Source: an uncultured Acidobacteriaceae bacterium (GTDB taxonomy: Bacteria > Acidobacteriota > Terriglobia > Terriglobales > Acidobacteriaceae). Taken from it: 64,000 nt of DNA. The stretch spans positions 206,506 through 270,505 of the forward strand of contig CAWFXF010000001.1 of assembly GCA_963819765.1 (NCBI GenBank), written 5' to 3'. Below the pieces are notes generated by a model. It had not been told where the DNA came from and searched no databases. It was given only the letters and a program-made list of their open reading frames with translations. Made by a program: the position numbers and the translations under genes. Positions 6,439-64,000 of this stretch are shown piece by piece (position 1 is the first letter of the stretch; every line of letters starts with the position of its first letter).

Positions 6439-9219
6439 TTATGCAGAGGGCAGCGCTTCAAGCGCTGCCTTGGCTTTTTCGTGCAGCATTTTGGTTTCAG
6501 TCGCCTGTTTTCGCAGACCTTCGATAATATGCGCAGGAGCTTTGGCCACGAATGCTTCATTGTTAAGTTGCTTTTCTGCAGATGCAAGACCTTTCTCGAA
6601 TTTCGCCATTTCCTTCATCAGTCTTTCGCGCTCGGCGGCTACATCGATCTGCCGTTCATAGACAACCGCCACGTCGAAGTTTGGGGTTGAACGTGTACCA
6701 GCCCCTGTCAGCACATCGCTGGAAAACTCTGCCGAAGCTACCCGAGCTAATCTGGAGAGCATATCGCTGTTGGCGTCGGCGAGTGCAATGACGCGATTGT
6801 TCGCGTGGAGCTTGATTGGAGCGGCTTCCTTTTCAGGAACGCCGAGTTCCTTGCGGAGAGCGCGCACGGTCACGATCAACTCCTGCAGCGTCGTCATCGC
6901 AGCAACCGAAGCTGAGTCGGAGGCAAAGTCTTCGGTCTGTGGGTATCGCGTGAGCGCGATCGACCTGACCGGAGCATTGCCCTCGTACAACGCATGCCAA
7001 AGTTCTTCCGTCAGGAAAGGCATGAAGGGGCTCAATAGCCGCAACGCGGCCTCGAATACAGCAACCAGCGACGCCAGAGTGATTGCGGTTACAGGATTCT
7101 TTTCAGTCCCCTCGCCAAATTCGAGCCGCAACTTCACCAGTTCCAGGTACCAGTCGCAGAACTCTCCCCAGAAGAATTGGTAAACCGCGCCAGCCGCTTC
7201 GTCGAAGCGATAGTCTGCGAGCGCCTTGTCGACCTCGGAGCAGACTGCACTTAACCGAGCGATGATCCACCGCGTCTCAAGCGGAGTTTCATCTGGAAGC
7301 TCCGGCACAGTACCGGTGGCAAGCATCGAAACCTTGTAACCTGCTTCTTTTGCGCGATCGATCTGCATAAACAGAAATCTGGCTGCATTCCATATTTTGT
7401 TTGCAAATGCACGATAGCCTTCCGTGCGTGCTTCGCTGAAGGCGATGTCGGTTCCAGGAGAGGCCATGCTCGCCAATGTGAAGCGCACTGCATCGGTGCC
7501 GAATTTCGTGACGATGTCGATTGGGTCGATTACGTTGCCCTTGGTCTTTGACATCTTCTGCCGCTCGGCGTCACGTACCAGTGCGTGAATATAGACTTCA
7601 CGGAATGGAACCGCATCTCTCAGTGTGCGTTCTGAGCCATCAGGCATCGGGACATCGAGCATGAAGTAGCAGCCAAGCATGATCATCCTGGCTACCCAGA
7701 AGAAGAGAATGTCGAAGCCTGTAACCAGAAGATCGGTGGGATAGAACGCAGCGAGATCAGCAGTCAGTCCACCAGAGCCTTCTGCTCCCGGCCAACCAAA
7801 TGCGGTGAAGGGAAGCAGTCCGCTCGAGAACCACGTATCGAGTACATCTGTCTCCTGAGTCAACTCATTGGAACCACAAGCGTGGCAACCCGTGGGAGTT
7901 TCGCGTGCAACCGTAATCTCTCCGCACCTGGCGCAATGCCACGCAGGAATTCTGTGCCCCCACCAAAGTTGCCGCGAGATGCACCAGTCGTGAATGTTCT
8001 TCATCCATTCGTCGTACGTCTTGCGGTACTGATCCGGTGTGAAGCGGATGTAGCCTTTATCCACGGCCTCGATTGCCTTGTCGGCGAGAGGTTGAATTTT
8101 GATAAACCATTGCTGGGACAGCCGCGGCTCGATCACGACTCCGGTGCGCTGGCTTAGTCCGATTGAAAGTGTGTGCTCTTTCACGTCGACCAACAGGCCC
8201 TGTTCTTTCAGATCCTCGATGATCGTTTTGCGGGCGGCATAGCGGTCCATCCCATCGTATGGCGAACCCGGTAATGCAACATGCGCCGTTTCATCGAGTA
8301 TGGAAAGATTCGGAAGCCCATGGCGCTGACCGATTGCGAAGTCGTTCGGATCATGCGCTGGAGTCACCTTTACCGCGCCGGTGCCAAACTCCGGTTTGGC
8401 CCAGTCATCGGCCAGAATAGGAATCTCGCGGTCGGGTCCGTTATTTACACCGCTCAGAGGGAGCAGGACAACTTTGCCGATGAGCGGTTTGTAGCGCTCA
8501 TCTTCAGGATTCACAGCCACTGCAACGTCGCCCAGCATTGTCTCAGGCCGGGTAGTCGCGACGACGATGGAACCGCTTCCATCTGCCAAGGGATATCGCA
8601 CGTGATAAATATTTCCGACGCGCTCTTCGTGCTCTACTTCAAGGTCGGAAACCGCAGTCTGGATTGAGGGGTCCCAGTTCACGATGTAGGCACCGCGGTA
8701 GATGAGCCCCTGTTCCCAGAGGCGAACGAAACACTCCTTTACGGCGACGCTCAGCCTCTCGTCCATGGTGAAGTAGGTGCGGCTCCAGTCCACGCTTGCG
8801 CCCAGCCGCTTCATCTGATCCAGGATGGCGTCTCCGTAGACGTTCTTCCATTCCCATACGCGCTCGACGAATGCTTCGCGTCCCAATCCCCTCCGGCATT
8901 TCCCCTCGGAGGCAAGCTGGCGCTCCACCATCATCTGAGTTGCGATGCCCGCATGGTCGGTACCAGGGACCCAGACGGCAATCTCGCCACGCATCCTGTG
9001 CCATCGCGTGAGAATGTCCATCTCGGTCTGGTTGAGCATGTGGCCCATGTGCAGCCGACCCGTTACGTTAGGCGGGGGCAACAGCATCGTGAACTTCTTC
9101 CGCTCGTTCTCCGTACCCTCAGGAGTGGCGACGTCAAACAAGTGTTCGCGGACCCAGTATTCGGCCCAGCGTTCTTCGATAACGGACGGATCGTATGCCT
9201 TTGGCAATTCGTGACTCAT
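6439..9219 (-). CDS. valS: valine-tRNA ligase
   Basis: Class I motifs PPPNVTGRLHMGH and KMSKTKGN, a full-length editing domain and a C-terminal coiled coil. The start is more likely MSHELPKAYDP (9219) than the track start at 9237. Confidence 0.97.
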   Translation of the reverse strand: MSHELPKAYDPSVIEERWAEYWVREHLFDVATPEGTENERKKFTMLLPPPNVTGRLHMGHMLNQTEMDILTRWHRMRGEIAVWVPGTDHAGIATQMMVERQLASEGKCRRGLGREAFVERVWEWKNVYGDAILDQMKRLGASVDWSRTYFTMDERLSVAVKECFVRLWEQGLIYRGAYIVNWDPSIQTAVSDLEVEHEERVGNIYHVRYPLADGSGSIVVATTRPETMLGDVAVAVNPEDERYKPLIGKVVLLPLSGVNNGPDREIPILADDWAKPEFGTGAVKVTPAHDPNDFAIGQRHGLPNLSILDETAHVALPGSPYDGMDRYAARKTIIEDLKEQGLLVDVKEHTLSIGLSQRTGVVIEPRLSQQWFIKIQPLADKAIEAVDKGYIRFTPDQYRKTYDEWMKNIHDWCISRQLWWGHRIPAWHCARCGEITVARETPTGCHACGSNELTQETDVLDTWFSSGLLPFTAFGWPGAEGSGGLTADLAAFYPTDLLVTGFDILFFWVARMIMLGCYFMLDVPMPDGSERTLRDAVPFREVYIHALVRDAERQKMSKTKGNVIDPIDIVTKFGTDAVRFTLASMASPGTDIAFSEARTEGYRAFANKIWNAARFLFMQIDRAKEAGYKVSMLATGTVPELPDETPLETRWIIARLSAVCSEVDKALADYRFDEAAGAVYQFFWGEFCDWYLELVKLRLEFGEGTEKNPVTAITLASLVAVFEAALRLLSPFMPFLTEELWHALYEGNAPVRSIALTRYPQTEDFASDSASVAAMTTLQELIVTVRALRKELGVPEKEAAPIKLHANNRVIALADANSDMLSRLARVASAEFSSDVLTGAGTRSTPNFDVAVVYERQIDVAAERERLMKEMAKFEKGLASAEKQLNNEAFVAKAPAHIIEGLRKQATETKMLHEKAKAALEALPSA

Positions 9220-9304
9220 GTGATTTAAGGTTAGCATTCAGCTCGATATAGCCTGCTCGTCACATCCCGCAGGTTCGCCGTAAACTAGCCATCGAGGTCT
9301 ACTC

Positions 9305-9829
9305 ATGCGCAGACAGCCTTTCTTAATTGTCCTGCTAGCCGTGCTTGCGTGCTCGATGCCTGCCTTCGCCAAAGATTCCCATGGTGACAACGACCGCGCC
9401 AGCTTTGGCGGCGATATTAAGATCACGGAGGGTGAGAATGCAGGTGATGTTGCGTGCGCTTTCTGCTCTGTGACTGTTCAAGGTGATGTAAGCGGTGATG
9501 TTGCTGTCCTGTTTGGAAATGTTACGGTTGATTCGGGCCACAAGATAGGGGGCGATGTCGCAATTCTCGGCGGAGACCTCAACCTCGGTGAGGAATCTGT
9601 GACGGGGGGCGATGTTGCGATTCTGGCTGGAAATGCCAATCTCGCTCACAGTGCAATGATTCATGGTTCGCGCACTGTTCTGCCGGGTCGTTTTTGGCTT
9701 CTCATTCCTTTCGCCCCGCTCATTATTCTGATTGGGGTAATCTGGCTGATCATCCATCTTTTCCGTCGCAATCGATACCGATATCCGGTTTACCCGGCTG
9801 GAGGGAATTATCCACGTCCCCCTCGGTAA
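9305..9829 (+). CDS. secreted, C-terminally membrane-anchored beta-helix-repeat protein (bactofilin-like repeats, CAFC motif)
   Basis: Signal peptide MRRQPFLIVLLAVLACSMPAFA, repeats GDVxVLxG/GDVAILGG, then a TM helix LLIPFAPLIILIGVIWLIIHLF and a basic Pro/Tyr tail. Confidence 0.6.
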   Translation: MRRQPFLIVLLAVLACSMPAFAKDSHGDNDRASFGGDIKITEGENAGDVACAFCSVTVQGDVSGDVAVLFGNVTVDSGHKIGGDVAILGGDLNLGEESVTGGDVAILAGNANLAHSAMIHGSRTVLPGRFWLLIPFAPLIILIGVIWLIIHLFRRNRYRYPVYPAGGNYPRPPR

Positions 9830-9893
9830 GAAGGGAACTGCAAGTTACGCTTCCGCGTATCTTCACCAGCACACATCGCTCCTGGGGGATCCC

Positions 9894-10400
9894 TTGTTGA
9901 CAAAGGCGCTCCGAACACTAGCTTTGGTCGTCACAGTTTCCGGGGTTGCCCTGGCTCAGGGACACGGCAACCGTACCTATTTCAATCAGGACATCTTTGT
10001 CGCACAAGGACAAGAGGTTCACAACGCCATCTGTTTTTTCTGCTCGGTCCAGGTGGAAGGCGAACTTAGCGGGCGCGTCCTGGTCGTTTTCGGCAGTCTC
10101 AATGTCTCGGGTCGCGTTGAAGGCGGAGCCATGGTGATTGGTGGAAATGCTGTCCTCGATTCGCAGGCCCGGTTAGGTGGCAACGCGGTCGTGATTGGAG
10201 GCAATGCCGTTTACGAATCCGAGGAGTCGATCTTAGGCAACGCTTATGTAATCGGGGGACATCTGTCAACCTTTGGCGAGCGTGCGAAGACTACACGCAG
10301 AGTTTCTTTTAGCCCCGCCTTTTTCTATAGCCTGGCGGTGATCATTCTGGTTTTGTTCTCTGTATTGTTCTTCCCCAGACGCCGTCCGAACACGGCCTGA
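9894..10400 (+). CDS. paralog of 9305-9829 (CFFC motif, GGNAVxxG repeats, C-terminal TM anchor)
   Basis: TTG start after GGGGGA. Signal peptide LRTLALVVTVSGVALAQ, repeats GGNAVLDS/GGNAVVIGGNAV, then a TM helix FFYSLAVIILVLFSVLFF. The architecture is the same as the upstream gene. Confidence 0.6.
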   Translation: MLTKALRTLALVVTVSGVALAQGHGNRTYFNQDIFVAQGQEVHNAICFFCSVQVEGELSGRVLVVFGSLNVSGRVEGGAMVIGGNAVLDSQARLGGNAVVIGGNAVYESEESILGNAYVIGGHLSTFGERAKTTRRVSFSPAFFYSLAVIILVLFSVLFFPRRRPNTA

Positions 10401-10419
10401 ACGTTTACGAATTTAAAGC

Positions 10420-10450
10420 GTAAGGGCTCCGATCAAATCGGAGCCCTTAC
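10420..10450. terminator. perfect 14-bp hairpin between convergent genes
   Basis: GTAAGGGCTCCGAT-CAA-ATCGGAGCCCTTAC, flanked by ATTTAAA on the left. It sits between the stop of 9894-10400 (+) and the stop of the bamD-like gene (-). Confidence 0.6.
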
Positions 10451-10470
10451 TGTATTCGAATGGATCCGGG

Positions 10471-12216
10471 TTAGAAGGGATTGATCTTCGACAGGCCCTT
10501 CTTCTTCTTATGCTTGCTCGACGACTCGTCATCCTTGTCATATGCAGGCTTGGAAGCTTTCTTCCCGTTTGCCGGAGGCGCCTGTGCGGCTGGCTGCGAA
10601 CCAGGAGTGACATCGTTTACAGCATCGGGCGCCGCGGCTGGTTTTTCAATCGGCGGAGGCGCTACAGCGTTGTCCGGTCCGACAGCTTTCAGTCCGCCAT
10701 TGGCATCGTTCGCCTTGGTCTGTGACGACGGCGTAAGAATCTCTACACCCATTGAGTTTCCTGCAGGTGCGCTACCCCCCGAAGGTGCTGCCGAGGGAAC
10801 GTTCGTCATCACAGATGCCCCGCTGCCACTGTCTCCCTGACCTGCAGCCGGAATCTCCTGAAACTGCAACGGAGTTTTAGCTGCTGCTGGTTGGGGTGGA
10901 GCTCCGGTTGAATTGGCGGCGGCAGCATCGGAGCCGGGCGCCGGTTGGGGATTGCCAGATGTAGTAGCGGCTGCTGGAGCGGTTCCGGGATTCATGGCGT
11001 TCTTGACGCTATCGGCGAAACCACGAGTGATATCCGGAGCCAACGTCGCTTTGGGATCAGACAAAGATGGTTCACCGTCACGTGCGGCCATTACTGTATC
11101 GGGCCGCCGCAGGATCATCAGCTTAGCGCGATCCTGAAGAGTGTAGCCGCGACGGCTGTTTTCCAGCGCTGCGCTGGCCGCTGCCTGCTCGGGAGTAGGA
11201 GCGGGAATGGGAAGGTTCATTGCTGCCAGCCGATCGCGGGCATCCTCCACGTGAGGTGAGGCCGCGTGCTCCAGGACGACTTTGCGATAGGAGGCTGCAG
11301 CCTGATCGTCATAAACCTTCAAGAGTCGGGCCCTGGCGTCCTCCGGCAGTTGCTTCCAATTTCGGATTGCCTTCGCCTCGGCCGAGTAGGCATCGCCAAG
11401 GCCAATCAGAACGTCGTCCATATGGCTGTACTGCGGGTACGTATCGGCTACGGTTTGTAAACGGGCAATGGTTGCGGCCCAGTTCTCGTGGGAGGCATAG
11501 AATGCGCCGATCTCAGCCTCTCGCGTGGCCAACACCTCCTGCGTCTCCCGGAGCCGTTGTTTAGCCTGCGGCACGAGAGTGGAGTCCGGGAATTGCTGCA
11601 GCATGAGGCGATACTCCTCCTGCGCGTGAACTGCCTTGGAGTAATCGCGATCGGGTTTGTCCATCTGGCGGAAGTAGATGTCGCCTACGCGCATCTGAGC
11701 TTCTGCGGCTTCGGGCGCATTGGGGAAGAAGGTGATGAAGTCTTTGTATTCCTGTTCGGCCTGCATTAAGGCTGCCGATCCACCCTCTTTGTACCAGCTA
11801 TCGGCGATGGCCAGCTTTGCCTTCATCTGGTATTGCGAATCGGGATAGGTGTTGAGAAGGGTCTGCAGATCGAGCCGCGCTACGTCGAAGTGGCCCTTCT
11901 TGGTGGCTGCCACCGCCTTGTCGTAGAGCTGCTTATCAGGCAGCTTGGAATCGGCCGTTGCGATGGAATCGGTTTTCTTCTCTTTGCGGAGCTGTTTCTT
12001 GGTGTCCTTGGATTGAACGACTTTGTCGTCCTTTTTTGAGGACTTGTCAGAAGTGGACAGAGTCACCGTTTGCTGCGGCTGTCCAGTCGCGTCCGTTGTA
12101 GTTTGTGTAGAACCAGTTACCTGTGCGGAAGCGATGGAAACTGCCATCAGGCTTGCGACGGCAAGACCGGCCATGATGCCAGCCCGCACCCCTGGGAAGA
12201 AAGAACGCTTTTTCAT
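10471..12216 (-). CDS. BamD/YfiO-like TPR outer-membrane assembly protein with long low-complexity extensions
   Basis: The core QLYDKAVAATKKGHFDVARLDLQTLLNTYPDSQYQMKAKLAIADSWYKEGG...EYKDFITFFPNAPEAAEAQMRVGDIYFRQM is BamD-like TPR. The N-terminus is a signal peptide without a lipobox Cys. The C-terminal region of about 270 aa is Pro/Ala/Gly/Ser-rich. Confidence 0.7.
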   Translation of the reverse strand: MKKRSFFPGVRAGIMAGLAVASLMAVSIASAQVTGSTQTTTDATGQPQQTVTLSTSDKSSKKDDKVVQSKDTKKQLRKEKKTDSIATADSKLPDKQLYDKAVAATKKGHFDVARLDLQTLLNTYPDSQYQMKAKLAIADSWYKEGGSAALMQAEQEYKDFITFFPNAPEAAEAQMRVGDIYFRQMDKPDRDYSKAVHAQEEYRLMLQQFPDSTLVPQAKQRLRETQEVLATREAEIGAFYASHENWAATIARLQTVADTYPQYSHMDDVLIGLGDAYSAEAKAIRNWKQLPEDARARLLKVYDDQAAASYRKVVLEHAASPHVEDARDRLAAMNLPIPAPTPEQAAASAALENSRRGYTLQDRAKLMILRRPDTVMAARDGEPSLSDPKATLAPDITRGFADSVKNAMNPGTAPAAATTSGNPQPAPGSDAAAANSTGAPPQPAAAKTPLQFQEIPAAGQGDSGSGASVMTNVPSAAPSGGSAPAGNSMGVEILTPSSQTKANDANGGLKAVGPDNAVAPPPIEKPAAAPDAVNDVTPGSQPAAQAPPANGKKASKPAYDKDDESSSKHKKKKGLSKINPF

Positions 12217-14404: not shown

Positions 14405-15793
14405 TCAGGAGCCCGCGATGGTCATGCCTTCGATGCGGATCGTGGGTGCGGCGGCGGAGCTTCGGAAGTGGAGGTCGTTGGCGATGGCTACGATGTTGCG
14501 GTACATGTCTTTCAGGTTGCCAGCGATGGTGATCTCTTCGACCGGGTAGGCGAGTTCGCCGTTTTCGATCCAAAGGCCGGCGGCACCCTGGGAGTAGTCT
14601 CCGGTAACGAGGTTGACACCGAAGCCCATGGTTTCGGTGACGTAGAGGCCGTTTTTTACGTCGCCGATCAGGACTTCGGGAGTGCAGTCGCCGGGCTCGA
14701 CGTAGAAGTTGTGGGAGCCGATGCCGGGGCTGCCGGCGAGGCCGCGGGAGGCGTTTCCGGTGGAGCGCATGTTCAGCTTGCGGGCGGTGTAGGTGTTGTT
14801 GACGTAGGTCTTGAGGATGCCTTTTTCGACGAGGACGGTGCGGCGTGTGGGCAGGCCCTCGCCGTCGAAGGGCGCGGTACCGAAGCCGCCGATGCCATCG
14901 AGCATCATGGTGCCGTCGTCGATGATGGTGATGTTTTCGCCGGCGACCTGCTTGCCGAGCATGTCGTCGAGAAAGGTTGCGTGGCGGTAGATGGCGTCTC
15001 CGTTGGCGGCGTCGAAGATGCTACCGATGATGCCGCGCGAGATCTCGGGGGAGAAGACTACGGGCGCCTTTTGCGTGGGGACGCGGCGGGCTCCGAGGTG
15101 GCGGAGGGTACGCTCGGCGGCGATGCGTCCGATCTCTTCAGGGGACTCGAGTTTTTTGGCGGTGCGGGAGCTTGAGTACCAATAGTTGCGCTGCATGCCG
15201 CCCTTGTCATCGATGGCGATCGGGGCGACGGAGAACCCGCAGTAGCTGCGGCGGTATTCGCCGATGAAGCCGCGGGAGTTGACGAAGATTTTGTGGGAGG
15301 TGCCGGTGTCGAAGTCCGCGCCCCCGGAGTTCTGGATGCGAGTGTCGCAGGCCATGGCGGCGGCTTCGGCACGGCGAGCGATCTCGATGCGTTCGGCCGG
15401 GGGCAATTCGTTGACGTCGTCGAAGTAGAGCTTGAGGTCGCCCTGGAGCTGGCCGAACTCTTCGGGTTCGGCGAGGCCGGCGAAGGGGTCTTCGCCGGTG
15501 ATTTTTACGAGTGTCATGGCTCCGTCTACGAGGTGTTCGATGGAGTCTTCGGAGAAGTCGGAGGTGGAGGTGTTGGCGGTTTTCTGGCCGAGAAAGACGC
15601 GAAGGCCGATGGCGCGGGAGCCGGCTTCTTTAAGGGTCTCAACCTGGCCGAGACGGACCCGGACTTCGAATTCGTCGCCCTCGTATACGACGGCTTCGGC
15701 ATCGGTGGCTCCGGCGTGGAGTGCCCGGGAGAGGATGTCGGAGGCGAGCTGGCGGAGATTGGTCTTCAGGGTCTGGGTATCGGACTGCATCAT
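14405..15793 (-). CDS. pmbA: PmbA/TldE-family metalloprotease subunit
   Basis: 462-aa PmbA_TldD-family protein lacking the HExxxH motif. Its TldD partner is at 23369-24811. Confidence 0.85.
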   Translation of the reverse strand: MMQSDTQTLKTNLRQLASDILSRALHAGATDAEAVVYEGDEFEVRVRLGQVETLKEAGSRAIGLRVFLGQKTANTSTSDFSEDSIEHLVDGAMTLVKITGEDPFAGLAEPEEFGQLQGDLKLYFDDVNELPPAERIEIARRAEAAAMACDTRIQNSGGADFDTGTSHKIFVNSRGFIGEYRRSYCGFSVAPIAIDDKGGMQRNYWYSSSRTAKKLESPEEIGRIAAERTLRHLGARRVPTQKAPVVFSPEISRGIIGSIFDAANGDAIYRHATFLDDMLGKQVAGENITIIDDGTMMLDGIGGFGTAPFDGEGLPTRRTVLVEKGILKTYVNNTYTARKLNMRSTGNASRGLAGSPGIGSHNFYVEPGDCTPEVLIGDVKNGLYVTETMGFGVNLVTGDYSQGAAGLWIENGELAYPVEEITIAGNLKDMYRNIVAIANDLHFRSSAAAPTIRIEGMTIAGS

Positions 15794-15807
15794 CTACCTT
15801 AGAGTAT

Positions 15808-16100
15808 CCCCCCTCCCTATCTTTTCCTGCAAATTGTTCATTATATTAGACTTAGATCTGGTCCATGCGCGTAAATTATTCCATTTACAGGGTTTAGCGG
15901 CAAAATATTCATAGATAAGGAGTTGATCGATCAACGGAACGGCGAAAGATGCCTCCGGCGGGTTGCCCAAGGCATTCGAACGTCCTCGCTACCTTCATTA
16001 TAGTGAAATGAGGAAACTGCTCTGCCACGCATAAGTGGTTATTTTGCTGTCAGTTGAGAGATTTTTGGACTTGACAGATTTCTGTGGAAATTCAATCGTA
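15808..16100 (+). repeat. intergenic repeat family, copy A
   Basis: CCCCCCTCCCTATCTTTTC...GCAAATTGTTCA...CTTAGATC...GCGCGTAAATTATTC...AACTGCTCTGCCAC...GGACTTGACA (TTGACA at 16071-16076). Homologous to 33601- and 63259-. Confidence 0.8.
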
Positions 16101-16119
16101 TCTGAAATGGGAGCGAGGA

Positions 16120-16539
16120 ATGAGTGAGTCTGGGAATAAGGCGGTGATCCGCAGATTTATCGAAGAGGTTCTGAACCAGAAGCGGCTGGAGGTGGCGGAC
16201 GAGATTGTTGCCGAGGATTTTGTTGAGCTGGATCCACTGCCGGGGCAAGGGCCGGGGCGCGATGGATTGAAAGAGGTGTTGGCGATGATGAGCGCGGGAT
16301 TTCCGGACATCCATTGGGTGGTAGAGGAGACGGTGGCTGAAGGGGAGAAGGTGGTCAGCCGGTTTACGTGGACGGGCACGCATCGCGGGACGTTTCTGGG
16401 GATTCCGGCAACGGGGAAGAGTGTTGCCGTGAAGGGTGTGGTGATCGATCGGGTGGTTGATGGGAAGATGACGGACAGCAGGATTTTGATGGACACGATG
16501 GGAATGTTGCAGCAGCTTGGCGTTATGCCGGGAGCCTAA
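16120..16539 (+). CDS. SnoaL-like ester cyclase family protein
   Basis: [20 protein letters not shown]...[21 protein letters not shown], with the RBS GAGCGAGGA before the ATG at 16120. The track start at 16084 is a GTG. Confidence 0.7.
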
Positions 16540-33410: not shown

Positions 33411-33539
33411 AGTTCTATCCTTTGAATGCAAATGGCTCGCCGGTTCGCGGATCGCTTGCAACGGTATGGTCACGTCACATCGAAGGGCCTGTCGCGGTGC
33501 CGGGCACACCCCTGGTTTCTGGAGTGGCAAGCTCTTATT

Positions 33540-33548
33540 ATTTTAGCA
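33540..33548 (-). promoter_or_regulatory. possible extended -10 (TGCTAAAAT) for rpmE
   Basis: The reverse complement of ATTTTAGCA lies about 125 nt upstream of the rpmE ATG. The -35 is weak. Confidence 0.3.
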
Positions 33549-33600: not shown

Positions 33601-33900
33601 CCCCCTCCCCTATCTTTTGGTGCAAATTGTTCATTTTGTTCAGTTTAGATCCTAGCCTTCCGCGTAAATTATTCTATTGAAATGAGTTGTAGGCAAAGTA
33701 TTCAAAATAAATGATTTATTTGATTGATGAGATTCGGAGATGGGTTTGGGCTTTTCGGTCTATCTCTATAATAGTGGATTGAGAGAACTAGTCTGCCACT
33801 TGTGGAAAGGATATTTTCCGACATAAGTGGCTGTTTTTCTTAGTCTTGTGATGATCGGGCCCATCGAGAGGACTTGACCGGCGTTTTGCTGAGGTTCTGC
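33601..33900 (+). repeat. intergenic repeat family, copy B
   Basis: CCCCCTCCCCTATCTTTTG...GCAAATTGTTCA...TTTAGATC...CCGCGTAAATTATTC...TATAAT (33767-33772)...AACTAGTCTGCCAC...GGACTTGACC (TTGACC at 33874-33879). Confidence 0.8.
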
Positions 33901-33999
33901 GTGGCTTCCCCCCCAAGTTATTGAAAAGATGAACGCAGGGGCGCGAGTTTTCGCCGATTACGCCCGCGGGTCTGGTGGCTACGCGGGGAATGAATACAT

Positions 34000-34025
34000 C
34001 TGGCGGGTCGTTGCCGACCCGCCAG
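34000..34025. terminator. perfect 11-bp hairpin about 100 nt downstream of the SDR gene
   Basis: CTGGCGGGTCG-TTGC-CGACCCGCCAG. On the minus strand it is followed by ATGTATTCATT. Confidence 0.4.
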
Positions 34026-34123
34026 ATGTGGGAAGCCAATTTCGAAGCCGGGCGATCTTCATTCGTGGTCTGGTGGGGACATTTAAAGAGGAATTGTCAT
34101 AGCGGGGATTTGCAATGGGCGGG

Positions 34124-61957: not shown

Positions 61958-62175
61958 TGCAATCAGCCGCAGCCATGTGGGCCGCTGATTGAGCTGTCCG
62001 GGTTCATGGAAGAAGGTCCTGCATCCGATTCTCAGTGCTACTTCCTGTGTAGCATACTTAGCCGAAGGACCCCAAATCGCTTACAGCTATGTTGTTGATA
62101 TCGTTGCCATCCTGTTGTCGTTCCCTGCGTCTAACGGATAGCTTCAGAGTGGTTCCACACCGAGAAAGAAACCTT

Positions 62176-63258
62176 ATGAATAAGACGCACAAGCGGGGCA
62201 TAAAGTTCTCTCCCTTTTGGCCAACTGCTGCCCTTATCTTTATTTTTCCAGCAACTTGCGGATTTGTCGTTGCCGCTCCGCAATCGCAGAAAAGCCTTCC
62301 TCCACCTGCGCCTGCGGCCGGCCAACCACATCGTACGCGGTTGATTTTGAAGGACGGCAACTACCAGATTGTGATGAGCTACCGGGTTGTGGGCGATCGC
62401 GTCCGCTATGTGAGCGCGGAGCGCGGGGGCGCGGAGGAGGAGATTCCGGCCGCGCTGGTGGACTTCGAGGCGACGAAGCGCTGGGAGCTGCAGCATACGG
62501 CACCTTCGGAGGACGATGCCAATCGACCCGCGGTGATCGATCCGGAGCTGCTGAAGGAGGAGGCTGAGAGGGCTTCGTATACTCCTGAGGTTGCAAAGGA
62601 TCTTCGGCTGCCGGACCAGGACAGCGTGCTTGGGTTCGATATTTATCGCGGAACGAATGAGCTGGTTCCGATGCAGCAGTCGGACGGCGAACTGAATCGG
62701 AATACGTCGCACAATGTGCTGAAGGCGGCGGTGAATCCGCTGGCGAGTTCGCATCAGCTGGTGCAGCTCAAGGGCGAGCGCTCGCCAGTGCAGTTCCACG
62801 TTGATACTCCGGTTTTGTATATCCGGATCGGTACTGATGCTCCGCCTTCCACGGGCGGCGCACCGATGACTGTAGACACGCACGGCGCGAGCAGTGCGAC
62901 GAAGGACACTTCCAGCGGTGGCTCTGCGAACAGCCGCTATGTGATTGTTCGCGCCGATGTCCGGCAGGGAGCGCGGATTGTTGCGAGCTTCAAGATTTCA
63001 GCCCTGGGCAGTGTTCACCAGCAGGAGGATGTTGTCGAGACGACGCAGGAGGTTCTCCCTGGCGGCCACTGGATGAAGCTGACGCCGAAGCAGTCACTGA
63101 CCTTTGGCGAGTATGCGCTGATGGAGATTCTCAGCGACAAGGAGGTTAATCTTGGCGTCTGGGACTTTGGGGTACATCCTACAGCTGCTGAGAATCGGGA
63201 TGTGATTCTGCCAGAGGCCAGGAGGCCCTTGTCGCTGGAACACCGGCGGCCGGAGTGA
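62176..63258 (+). CDS. secreted hypothetical protein
   Basis: The internal ATG (62176) gives MNKTHKRGIKFSPFWPTAALIFIFPATCGFVVAAPQ. 360 aa, no family recognised. Confidence 0.6.
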   Translation: MNKTHKRGIKFSPFWPTAALIFIFPATCGFVVAAPQSQKSLPPPAPAAGQPHRTRLILKDGNYQIVMSYRVVGDRVRYVSAERGGAEEEIPAALVDFEATKRWELQHTAPSEDDANRPAVIDPELLKEEAERASYTPEVAKDLRLPDQDSVLGFDIYRGTNELVPMQQSDGELNRNTSHNVLKAAVNPLASSHQLVQLKGERSPVQFHVDTPVLYIRIGTDAPPSTGGAPMTVDTHGASSATKDTSSGGSANSRYVIVRADVRQGARIVASFKISALGSVHQQEDVVETTQEVLPGGHWMKLTPKQSLTFGEYALMEILSDKEVNLGVWDFGVHPTAAENRDVILPEARRPLSLEHRRPE

Positions 63259-63500
63259 CCCCCCCTCCCCTATCTTTTGCCGTAAAGTGTTCAAAAAAAT
63301 AAGCTTAGATCCGAGTTTTACGCGCAATTCGCATGCCCAAGGCCGGAAAATCCGGGAAAGGCCAAAGAGCCAACGCGGTCGGTCTCTATTTCTATCGTAA
63401 CGTGTCGACGAAACTGCTATGCCACTTCAATGTCTTTGCTTTTGTGTGACTTAGGGGTTTCAGGGTCTTGACATGCGATTTTGCCGGGGTTTTTGGTGAA
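63259..63500 (+). repeat. intergenic repeat family, copy C
   Basis: It starts immediately after the upstream stop codon: CCCCCCCTCCCCTATCTTTTG...GTAAAGTGTTCA...CTTAGATC...CGCGCAATTCGC...AACTGCTATGCCAC...GGTCTTGACA (TTGACA at 63468-63473). Confidence 0.75.
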
Positions 63501-63540
63501 GGAATTTTGTAAGCAGTGGATTTATCGGTCGTTCGCTTTG

Positions 63541-63580
63541 AAAAAAAAAGGGCGGCATCGGAGCGATGCCGCCTTTTGGG
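63541..63580. terminator. bidirectional intrinsic terminator
   Basis: A9-G-GGCGGCATC-GGAGC-GATGCCGCC-TTTTGGGTTT, 15 nt from the stop of the minus-strand receptor gene. Confidence 0.8.
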
Positions 63581-63594
63581 TTTAGCGTTTTTGG

Positions 63595-64000
63595 TTAGAA
63601 GACGAGTTTGCCGATCAGCTGCAATTGACGGGGACCATAGAGGGTATTGTTGGTTCCGGTTGGTGTGCTAAAGGCCGATGCAGGTGAGGTGTTTGGTGTG
63701 GTGAAGGGTGCGATGCAACCCTGGAGTGGAGAACCTGCCGGGCCGGGAGTCTGCGTTGCTGTGGGGCACGCAGCCGTTCCGACCACGTTGTAGGCCGAGT
63801 AAGTGGAGTTCACGGAGGTGATGATCTTGTGATTGAGGAGATTGAAGGCCTCCGCGGTGAACTGGAGCTTGATGTTTTCGTGGATGGGAACATCACGCGA
63901 GACGCGGAAGTCGAAGTTGTAGAAGCCGGGACCGATGATGCTGTTGCGCCCGATCTGCGGAGGACGGCCGGTGGTGGCAAGGCCGGAACCGGAGCTCATG
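63595..64000 (-). CDS. TonB-dependent receptor, C-terminal part (continues beyond right edge)
   Basis: ...FTAEAFNLLNHKIITSV...LYGPRQLQLIGKLVF*, a typical TBDR C-terminal barrel strand ending in Phe. Confidence 0.8.
   Translation of the reverse strand, partial: MSSGSGLATTGRPPQIGRNSIIGPGFYNFDFRVSRDVPIHENIKLQFTAEAFNLLNHKIITSVNSTYSAYNVVGTAACPTATQTPGPAGSPLQGCIAPFTTPNTSPASAFSTPTGTNNTLYGPRQLQLIGKLVF

Follow-up and report, generated by a model that had tools for sequence, protein, structure and literature searches.

An old family of dispersed intergenic elements with a candidate minus-strand promoter in Acidobacteriaceae

A 64,000-nt stretch of DNA from an uncultured Acidobacteriaceae bacterium (GCA_963819765.1, contig CAWFXF010000001.1, positions 206,506 to 270,505; hereafter the window) carries three copies of a short AT-rich intergenic element, here called A, B and C. 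The question raised by this locus is what kind of unit the copies represent. A preliminary description, made from the sequence alone, had reported six ordered blocks (I to VI) in each copy and preferred a structured RNA, with a modular regulatory cassette as the alternative. In this work, we found that the copies belong to a family kept at orthologous loci in a related genome and that they have no conserved RNA fold. The only conserved promoter-like signal sits on the minus strand, and any transcription would most likely run opposite to the orientation first given. The cassette alternative fits best. Specifically, our favoured but tentative reading is that of an old dispersed intergenic promoter-plus-leader cassette of the putative mobile promoter kind, which would act at the level of transcription in an Edaphobacter-like clade of the Acidobacteriaceae.

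Three copies and their modular anatomy

Copy A covers positions 15808..16090, copy B 33601..33892 and copy C 63259..63487, all on the plus strand, as delimited by reading, alignment and profile matches. The number, places and common orientation of the copies were as first described, and the six ordered blocks common to A, B and C were likewise seen in reading and alignment. The copies are 229-292 bp long, with a G+C content of 40-49% vs 58% for the window. Block I lies 262, 272 and 208 nt from the TTGAC of block VI in A, B and C, respectively (the earlier 263, 273 and 209 nt follow another counting convention). About 32 extra nt separate blocks V and VI in copy B, and copy C is without a third repeat unit.

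Block counts in the window were compared with dinucleotide shuffles. The block I pattern matched three times against 0.46 expected, and block V gave three exact matches against 0.61 expected with one mismatch allowed. For block II there were five matches against 0.55 expected, all except one within the copies, a count raised by a second internal occurrence. A repeat search of the window returned a 67-nt three-copy family (75-76% identity) and a 124-nt A/B pair (72%). A left-half profile built from family members found three window places with E = 4e-17 to 5e-18, the right-half profile gave E = 2e-21, 6e-20 and 1e-6 at its three places, and neither search found a fourth copy in the window. The copies form a three-copy repeat family whose shared ordered blocks stand far above chance.

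The family set used here comprises 16 copies from the window, five related genomes or metagenome-assembled genome contigs, and six metagenome contigs; about 13 members beyond those of the window were present in related Acidobacteriaceae genomes and soil metagenomes. Scanning Joint Genome Institute (JGI) metagenomes with the 20-base pattern AAANTNTTCA-N11-TTAGRT-N10-CGYGYAA yielded eight matches, every one of which had the C-tract, which lies outside the pattern, and further blocks. The AT-rich pattern TATCTTTTNNNGNAAANTGTTCA gave 82 chance matches in AT-rich genomes of the genome collection, none with a C-tract.

The left module opens with this C-tract, CCCCCTCCCC, which was kept in 16/16 copies. 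Block I of copy A (15808..15825, plus strand) consists of the C-tract CCCCCCTCCC and TATCTTTT, stands 14 nt from the pmbA ATG and reads GGGAGGGGGG on the minus strand, which is Shine-Dalgarno-like. The corresponding blocks lie at 33601..33618 in copy B, by block pattern match, and at 63259..63278 in copy C, immediately after the TGA stop of the plus-strand gene 62089-63258 (both plus strand).

Two features of the left module had gone unmentioned in the preliminary description, namely a set of direct repeats and the fixed lengths of the spacers. Together with a third site, blocks II and IV make up a set of three ~29-nt direct repeats with the unit GYAAAnTnTTCA-N11-TTAG; each copy has one to three such units, and blocks II, III and IV fall within the first two (R1 and R2). 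The spacings N11 and N10 were invariant in the copies examined, with 42 nt from R1 to R2 and 29-30 nt from R2 to R3. In copy A (all repeats are given on the plus strand), R1 (15829..15858) reads GCAAATTGTTCA, N11, TTAGATC and equals blocks II and III; R2 (15871..15899), placed by the left-module alignment, reads GTAAATTATTCC, N11, TTAGCG and holds block IV; and R3 (15900..15928) reads GCAAAATATTCA, N11, TTGATC. Copy B has R1 at 33622..33651, from block match and alignment, and R2 with R3 at 33664..33721, 29 nt apart, where the repeat search paired 33666-33688 with 33695-33717 at 74% identity. Copy C has R1 and a truncated R2 at 63282..63334, reading GTAAAGTGTTCA, N11, TTAGATC and then CGCGCAATTCGCAT. 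The repeat motif is confined to the elements in the window, the single outside match carrying a mismatch.

Two further observations concern the surroundings of the left module and of copy B. A second C-run, CCCCCCC, followed by AAGTTATTGAAAAGA, stands directly after copy B (window 33905-33930), and TATTGAAAAGA repeats TATTGAAATGA of unit R2; this stretch may be a degenerate extra unit. The C-tract often has G-rich, complementary sequence immediately to its left (L087 1286-1330, L089, L095 and window 63250-63270; L numbers label the compared sequences), with examples such as GGGG-TAA-CCCC, GGGG-TGTA-CCCC, GAGG-TAC-CCTC and GGAG-TGA-CCCCCCCTCC, and in L087 AGGGAGT occurs in tandem at the end of a tyrA-like open reading frame (ORF). 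The G-rich flank, the C-tract and the following T-run could serve as a plus-strand terminator for the left-hand gene.

The right module runs from a pyrimidine-rich TTCyATTnTAGyG through GGAACTnCTCTGCCAC and a T-rich patch to GGGCTTGACA-n-GATTT. Its spacing is equally rigid: in nine of the 11 copies with both landmarks located, block V and CTTGAC are exactly 55 nt apart, the two others being the rpmE copies, where insertions give 87 nt (copy B of the window) and 98 nt (L095). Block V of copy A (16015..16028, plus strand) reads AACTGCTCTGCCAC; its minus-strand reading, GTGGCAGAGCAGTT, is immediately upstream of the -10 hexamer described below, and exact pattern matches place block V of B at 33786..33799 and that of C at 63412..63425 (plus strand). 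Block VI, also on the plus strand, reads GGACTTGACA with a GATTTCTGTGGAAA tail in copy A (16067..16090), where it is the element's right edge, GGACTTGACC with a GGCGTTTTGCTGA tail in B (33870..33892) and GGTCTTGACA with a TGCGATTTTGCCGG tail in C (63464..63487), the last tail being kept in the ortholog L110. The GCGWTTTTGCYGRGGTT tail reported for B and C was present.

Several promoter readings of these right-hand blocks were tried and rejected. With the TTGACA of block VI taken as the -35 of a plus-strand promoter, no conserved -10 follows at 16-19 nt downstream, and only copy A has a passable one (AATCGT). A sigma-54 promoter in block V on the minus strand would need GG at -24 and GC at -12 in a GG-N10-GC arrangement; TGGCA is there, but in place of the GC every copy has TC, CC or CT, and L106 and L107 are also without the GG of the -24 position. 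Readings of block V as an extracytoplasmic function (ECF)-type (GGAAC-N17-GTT) or sigma-28 promoter fit a few copies each. As a separate observation, L106 carries at 9465-9735 a ~270-nt insertion of GC-rich REP-like palindromes between duplicated GGGCTTGACAAGGATTTGG, which equals block VI, and another repeat may have block VI as its target or recombination site.

A promoter-like signal on the opposite strand and the search for an RNA fold

On the minus strand we found a -10-like hexamer that had not been noted before. This candidate -10 of a putative promoter, P1, reads TATAAT in copy A (15997..16002), TATTAT in B (33768..33773) and TACGAT in C (63394..63399). All 12 full-length copies with a right module carry TAnnAT at the same position (TATACT once), the hexamers being TATAAT and TAAAAT in two copies each, TACAAT in four, and TATTAT, TACGAT, TAGAAT and TATACT in one each. 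Variation is confined to the inner bases, with T1, A2 and T6 constant, so that 12/12 copies agree with a sigma-70 -10 (TAnnnT with conserved A2 and T6). On the minus strand the hexamer is preceded by GTGGCAGAGnAGTT and an A-rich tract and followed by rGAAnnAG and then the central hairpin. In the left module, no position keeps TAnnnT on either strand. A second minus-strand promoter formed from R3 and R2 (TTGCCG-17-AATAAT in A, TTGCCT-17-AATAAT in B) was discarded, as it is not conserved in C, L110, L106 and L107. Since copy A takes up the whole intergenic region shared by pmbA and the SnoaL gene, the promoter of pmbA must be located within it.

Between the two modules, every copy has a GC-rich central hairpin of -5 to -31 kcal/mol, whose sequence is non-homologous between copies and even between orthologs. 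It lies at 15941..15984 in copy A (-17.0 kcal/mol, with an inverted repeat 15949-15959 / 15965-15975), at 33722..33760 in B (-9.5 kcal/mol) and at 63340..63385 in C (-15.9 kcal/mol), the last containing the CCGG-AAAAT-CCGG hairpin already reported. By-eye reading of the alignment puts the start of the hairpin at about +1 to +5 of the predicted minus-strand start in most copies. In L095, L093, L094, L084 and L091, a GC stem with a U-run is present in both directions, with A-run and T-run flanks, and in these relatives the hairpin has the appearance of a bidirectional terminator. For the three window copies, a terminator scan gave no call for the central hairpin, and no terminator-like site was present between P1 and the left edge.

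The structured RNA that had been preferred at first was not borne out. RNAalifold, run on 10 full-length copies, returned 0 pairs on both strands. Ungapped alignments of the modules gave consensus energies of 0 to -0.5 kcal/mol, which were not better than column shuffles apart from one 6-bp pairing, and copy A, with folding z-scores of -0.10 (plus strand) and -0.57 (minus strand), was not more stable than its shuffles. A 6-bp pairing that would join block V to block VI, and is better on the minus strand, was set aside; its bases do not vary, and it is broken in L106 and L107. A long-range pairing between the C-tract and the G-run that precedes TTGACA was also rejected, since this G-run measures only 2-5 nt and is absent in L091. 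No match to Rfam 15, Acido-1 and Acido-Lenti-1 included, was found in the window at gathering thresholds, in agreement with the earlier view that this is not a described Rfam family, and permissive scans (E up to 10) of the three regions gave noise, the best in-copy scores being 13-18 bits against thresholds of 46-76 bits.

As a positive control, the rpmE leader beside copy B was folded in the same way and gave a consensus of 33 pairs, compensatory changes included, which makes the null result for the element informative. The leader is an observation in its own right. About 65 nt of it (window 33414-33500, minus strand) are nearly invariant among the window, L095 and a more distant genus (L096-L105), and RNAalifold folds it at -28.8 kcal/mol, with compensatory changes in four of the pairs and no Rfam match. 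We regard this conserved leader as a candidate ribosomal-protein L31 leader RNA.

Orthologous copies and gene contexts

The age of the element can be read from its relatives. The window pmbA protein is 80-92% identical to Edaphobacter and Granulicella proteins. Copy A has orthologs upstream of pmbA in L085, L084, L106 and L107, copy B has one upstream of rpmE in L095, and copy C has one in L110 (11081-11353) with the same stop-codon junction. L084, L095 and L110 are parts of one JX_forest contig, with neighbouring proteins 89%, 95% and 85% identical, so all three loci are occupied in a second species. Because all three window copies are orthologous in one related genome, the element is old and selectively maintained and is not a recent duplication, the last point being one that the preliminary description had also made. 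At pmbA, the copy stays at the gene start and the gene on the far side changes (SnoaL, MacB, DAGK, TPR). Between orthologs, the spacers and the central hairpin have been replaced and the blocks and spacer lengths persist, a pattern suggesting that selection acts on the blocks and not on the whole sequence.

The family has been dynamic in the past. In the left module, copy A of the window is 77% identical to copy B and 48% to its own positional ortholog in L084, copy B is 52% identical to its counterpart in L095, and copy C groups with the pmbA copy of L084 and with L091; paralogs are 62-77% identical. Copies at one locus thus fall into different subfamilies, which points to gene conversion or replacement. 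The element is absent from the pmbA upstream region of L108/L109, where a PIN-toxin gene lies 45 nt upstream, and from a more distant, neighbouring genus, which has a SnoaL/pmbA gap of 86-147 nt and a short rpmE upstream region. In a side observation, relatives (P0001 locus, L085) have a padR gene and a macB-like gene between the SnoaL gene and pmbA; the window (15793-16120) is without both, so that a rearrangement breakpoint coincides with the right edge of copy A.

The gene contexts in the window differ as first described. Two divergent genes, pmbA (minus strand, start 15793) and the SnoaL gene (plus strand, start 16120; Pfam), have copy A as their whole intergenic gap. At copy B, rpmE (minus strand, start 33413) begins 190 nt away, with the copy on its upstream side, and an SDR gene, also on the minus strand, has the copy downstream of it. 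Copy C sits in a convergent setting: on one side a plus-strand gene has its stop codon at 63258, and on the other an outer-membrane beta-barrel gene (minus strand) ends at 63595.

Further signals were seen near the copies. The interval between copy C and the barrel gene holds a strong bidirectional terminator, GGCGGCATCGGAGCGATGCCGCC, with A9 and T-runs at its sides (window 63540-63580), and L110 has a hairpin equivalent to it. A perfect 11-bp hairpin, CTGGCGGGTCG-TTGC-CGACCCGCCAG, without an adjacent T-run, stands at 33999-34026 in the long gap that separates copy B from the SDR gene. On a larger scale, GC skew turns from negative to positive at about 9000-10500 and stays positive to the window end, and most genes to the right of this switch are on the minus strand; the change could be a strand-bias switch or a replication landmark.

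What the element may be

The signs of a classic insertion sequence (IS) or MITE (miniature inverted-repeat transposable element) were missing, as had been stated before. In none of the three window copies are the two ends connected by an inverted repeat, and the repeat search and flank inspection found no shared flanking direct repeats and no consistent target duplication. Matches of 3-4 nt (GTAT, GTG, GTGA) occur 21-22 nt after TTGAC in A, B and C and were unseen in L085, L089, L093 and L094. The element is MITE-like in being short, non-coding (no conserved ORF) and multi-copy, with three copies in 64 kb. Searches of plasmids and phages by blastn gave no match, and viral contigs gave chance coding-region matches or nothing. 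Integration linked to tRNA genes was dropped, the window having 0 tRNA genes. By eye, look-alikes of LexA (GTTC-N7-GTTC), FNR, IHF and ARG-box sites were not consistent across copies, and the DnaA box TTWTNCACA fits only the pmbA copies. The proposed autonomous modular intergenic unit is supported.

Putative mobile promoters (PMPs), reportedly the work of Matus-Garcia, Nijveen and van Passel in 2012, resemble the element in that homologous non-coding sequence stands upstream of unrelated genes (here pmbA and rpmE), with no associated IS and no Rfam match. They are recognised by >=80% identity over >=50 nt in a -150 to -50 window upstream of non-homologous genes, and form a phenomenological class whose pairs average 92% identity (PMC3575422). 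In our copies, A and B are 80% identical over 50 nt, and A/C and B/C reach 76%. The element differs in that only the A/B pair attains 80%, only copy A is near the -150 to -50 window, copies also stand after gene ends, and it is much older than typical PMP pairs.

Other dispersed repeats show partial likeness. In Correia elements, terminal inverted repeats of 26 bp are combined with a TA target duplication and an IHF site, whereas none of these three features was found here. They are promoter-carrying repeats of Neisseria (PMC3575422), and the likeness lies in short dispersed intergenic repeats with promoter elements that affect neighbouring genes. BOX of Streptococcus pneumoniae is similarly modular with a variable number of internal repeats, here one to three R units between fixed ends. 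The BOX modules boxA, boxB and boxC form a stable stem-loop, whereas our element is unrelated in sequence and has no conserved fold. ERIC/IRU and REP/REPIN sequences are also intergenic, multi-copy and sometimes kept at orthologous sites, but they are imperfect palindromes, with REPINs tied to a RAYT transposase (partly after PMC3575422), and our element is not palindromic. Acido-1 and Acido-Lenti-1 share the non-coding nature and the acidobacterial origin, and differ in that the element had no match in Rfam. A literature search on acidobacterial small RNAs or repeats found nothing relevant. The element is a previously undescribed family among dispersed promoter-bearing intergenic repeats.

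Two lines of argument lead us to lean towards the promoter-plus-leader cassette. Fixed spacings with variable spacers, spacer turnover between orthologs and a hairpin kept in place but not in sequence point to linear motifs read by a protein and not to an RNA fold. The textbook -10 constraint on the minus strand and a pmbA promoter necessarily inside copy A suggest a cassette firing leftward. Read on the minus strand, such a cassette would begin with an upstream block AAATC-n-TGTCAAGCCC, an A-rich tract and GTGGCAGAGnAGTT, followed by the putative sigma-70-type -10 TAnnAT and an initiating-purine context rGAAnnAG, with the GC hairpin beginning at the predicted transcription start or a few bases from it. 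A leader of ~130 nt would follow, bearing up to three 29-nt direct repeats (TGAAnAnTTTGC ... AYCTAA) as likely binding sites for a putative protein and ending in AAAAGATAGGGGAGGGGG. Where a minus-strand gene lies downstream (pmbA at A, rpmE at B, recX and others elsewhere), the cassette would supply, or add to, the promoter and 5' leader of that gene, and in the convergent setting of copy C it would give a non-coding or antisense transcript. We infer from these motifs that P1 may be a working promoter, that transcription would run leftward and that the repeats may be bound by a protein.

Several observations weigh against this cassette reading. P1 has no recognisable TTGACA-like -35 at 16-18 nt, the sequence 17 nt upstream being GCAGAG or CCGATT, and a simple sigma-70 scan of the three window regions gave no P1 call because the canonical -35 is absent. 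TAnAAT-GAA resembles part of the repeat unit, TTCATTATA occurring both in R1 and in the -10 region of copy A, and could therefore be a protein site instead of a -10. The rpmE gene seems to own a -10 nearer to it (minus-strand TAAAAT at 33540-33545). In the five relatives with a terminator-like hairpin, the U-run after it on the minus strand implies that P1 transcripts would stop after about 40 nt. Finally, the left neighbour is a minus-strand gene start at ~5 loci and a plus-strand gene end at ~4, so the cassette would not be the dedicated leader of one gene class.

The same signals admit other explanations. One, though unlikely, is an independent minus-strand non-coding RNA (ncRNA) gene: P1 would drive an unstructured motif-rich RNA of ~200-250 nt, or a ~40-nt hairpin RNA in copies whose hairpin ends transcription, acting in trans as a sponge for an RNA-binding protein via its three repeats or by base-pairing through single-stranded blocks. 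The conserved -10 and the conserved sequence after it, the presence in all gene contexts including the convergent one, the maintenance at orthologous sites and the near-restriction of the repeat motif to elements in the window all agree with such a gene. Against it, no defined 3' end was seen, with no terminator after the G-tract and none internal in the window copies; a conserved fold is lacking, and a copy flush with the pmbA start across genomes suggests a role in cis. The rigid spacings between variable spacers (N11, N10, 42/29 nt between units, 55 nt from V to VI), the AT-richness in 58% G+C surroundings and the absence of detected RNA structure would also suit an array of DNA-level binding sites, be it for a regulator, a nucleoid protein or a recombinase, in which three phased repeats and blocks V/VI would assemble a nucleoprotein complex and transcription of the element would not matter. 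We consider this distinctly unlikely, as it leaves unexplained the invariant TAnnAT with its start-site context and the always-present non-homologous hairpin, has no candidate protein and sits ill with a motif that the window's other intergenic regions do not contain.

A mobile element, non-autonomous and lacking terminal inverted repeats, either MITE-like or derived from an IS91-, IS110- or IS200/605-type element and moving now or recently, would see transposon-end relics in the inward promoter and subterminal repeats. Dispersed subfamilies with diverging same-locus copies (48% for copy A and its L084 ortholog against 77% for A and B), a sharp left edge often preceded by TA or GTA, an outward TTGACA at the right edge, the absence from the neighbouring genus and L108, and one metagenome contig that begins at the element edge speak for mobility. 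We judge it quite improbable all the same, given that terminal inverted repeats and a consistent target duplication are missing, neither a partner transposase nor a longer version was seen, plasmids, phages and viral contigs gave no match, the three loci are stably occupied in two species, and paralogs of only 62-77% identity indicate no recent burst. A structured RNA or cis-regulatory leader on the plus strand, the first preference, is by now very improbable and largely refuted: ordered blocks with variable spacers, a hairpin in every copy and, in some copies, a small hairpin with a U-run after block V speak for it, but RNAalifold gave 0 pairs, module energy was 0 and z was -0.10, Rfam had no match, no plus-strand promoter is conserved, left flanks are unrelated between copies, and no common gene lies downstream on the plus strand. 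Hardly credible is a minus-strand reading frame that would use the WTG of WTGAAnAnTTTG as its start and encode a small protein or leader peptide. An ATG or TTG occupies that position in 15/16 copies, and by eye the stop touches or overlaps the pmbA start in copy A, L084 and L106; yet the peptides would be anywhere from 6 to >27 residues long and their C-termini are unrelated, nucleotide changes occur at second codon positions with third positions fixed, no Shine-Dalgarno lies upstream, and one copy is without a start codon. A conserved small ORF on this strand was accordingly rejected on frame, length and codon-position pattern.

A bolder possibility, which we also hold to be unlikely, is that each copy is a gene complete in itself, encoding a regulatory RNA of a new, unstructured and repeat-bearing class, or that the copies are the ends of an unseen mobile element without inverted repeats whose recombinase lies elsewhere. 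If they were RNA genes, each would have its own unusual promoter, with a -10, no -35 and GTGGCAGAGnAGTT in its place, which would suggest a dedicated activator or sigma factor, and the three repeats would titrate or recruit a specific protein.

Acidobacteria are among the most abundant soil phyla, and very little is known of their transcription signals, small RNAs and repeats. The family offers a testable handle in this respect, since its conserved -10, the non-canonical block upstream of that, the hairpin near the start and the triple repeat recur at unrelated loci across species. Annotating it would prevent confusion with a riboswitch-like RNA. If P1 is inactive, the rigid spacing points to a DNA-binding complex. 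If P1 is active, one promoter-and-leader module would have spread to unrelated genes (pmbA, rpmE, recX), which points to a regulator that recognises the repeats.

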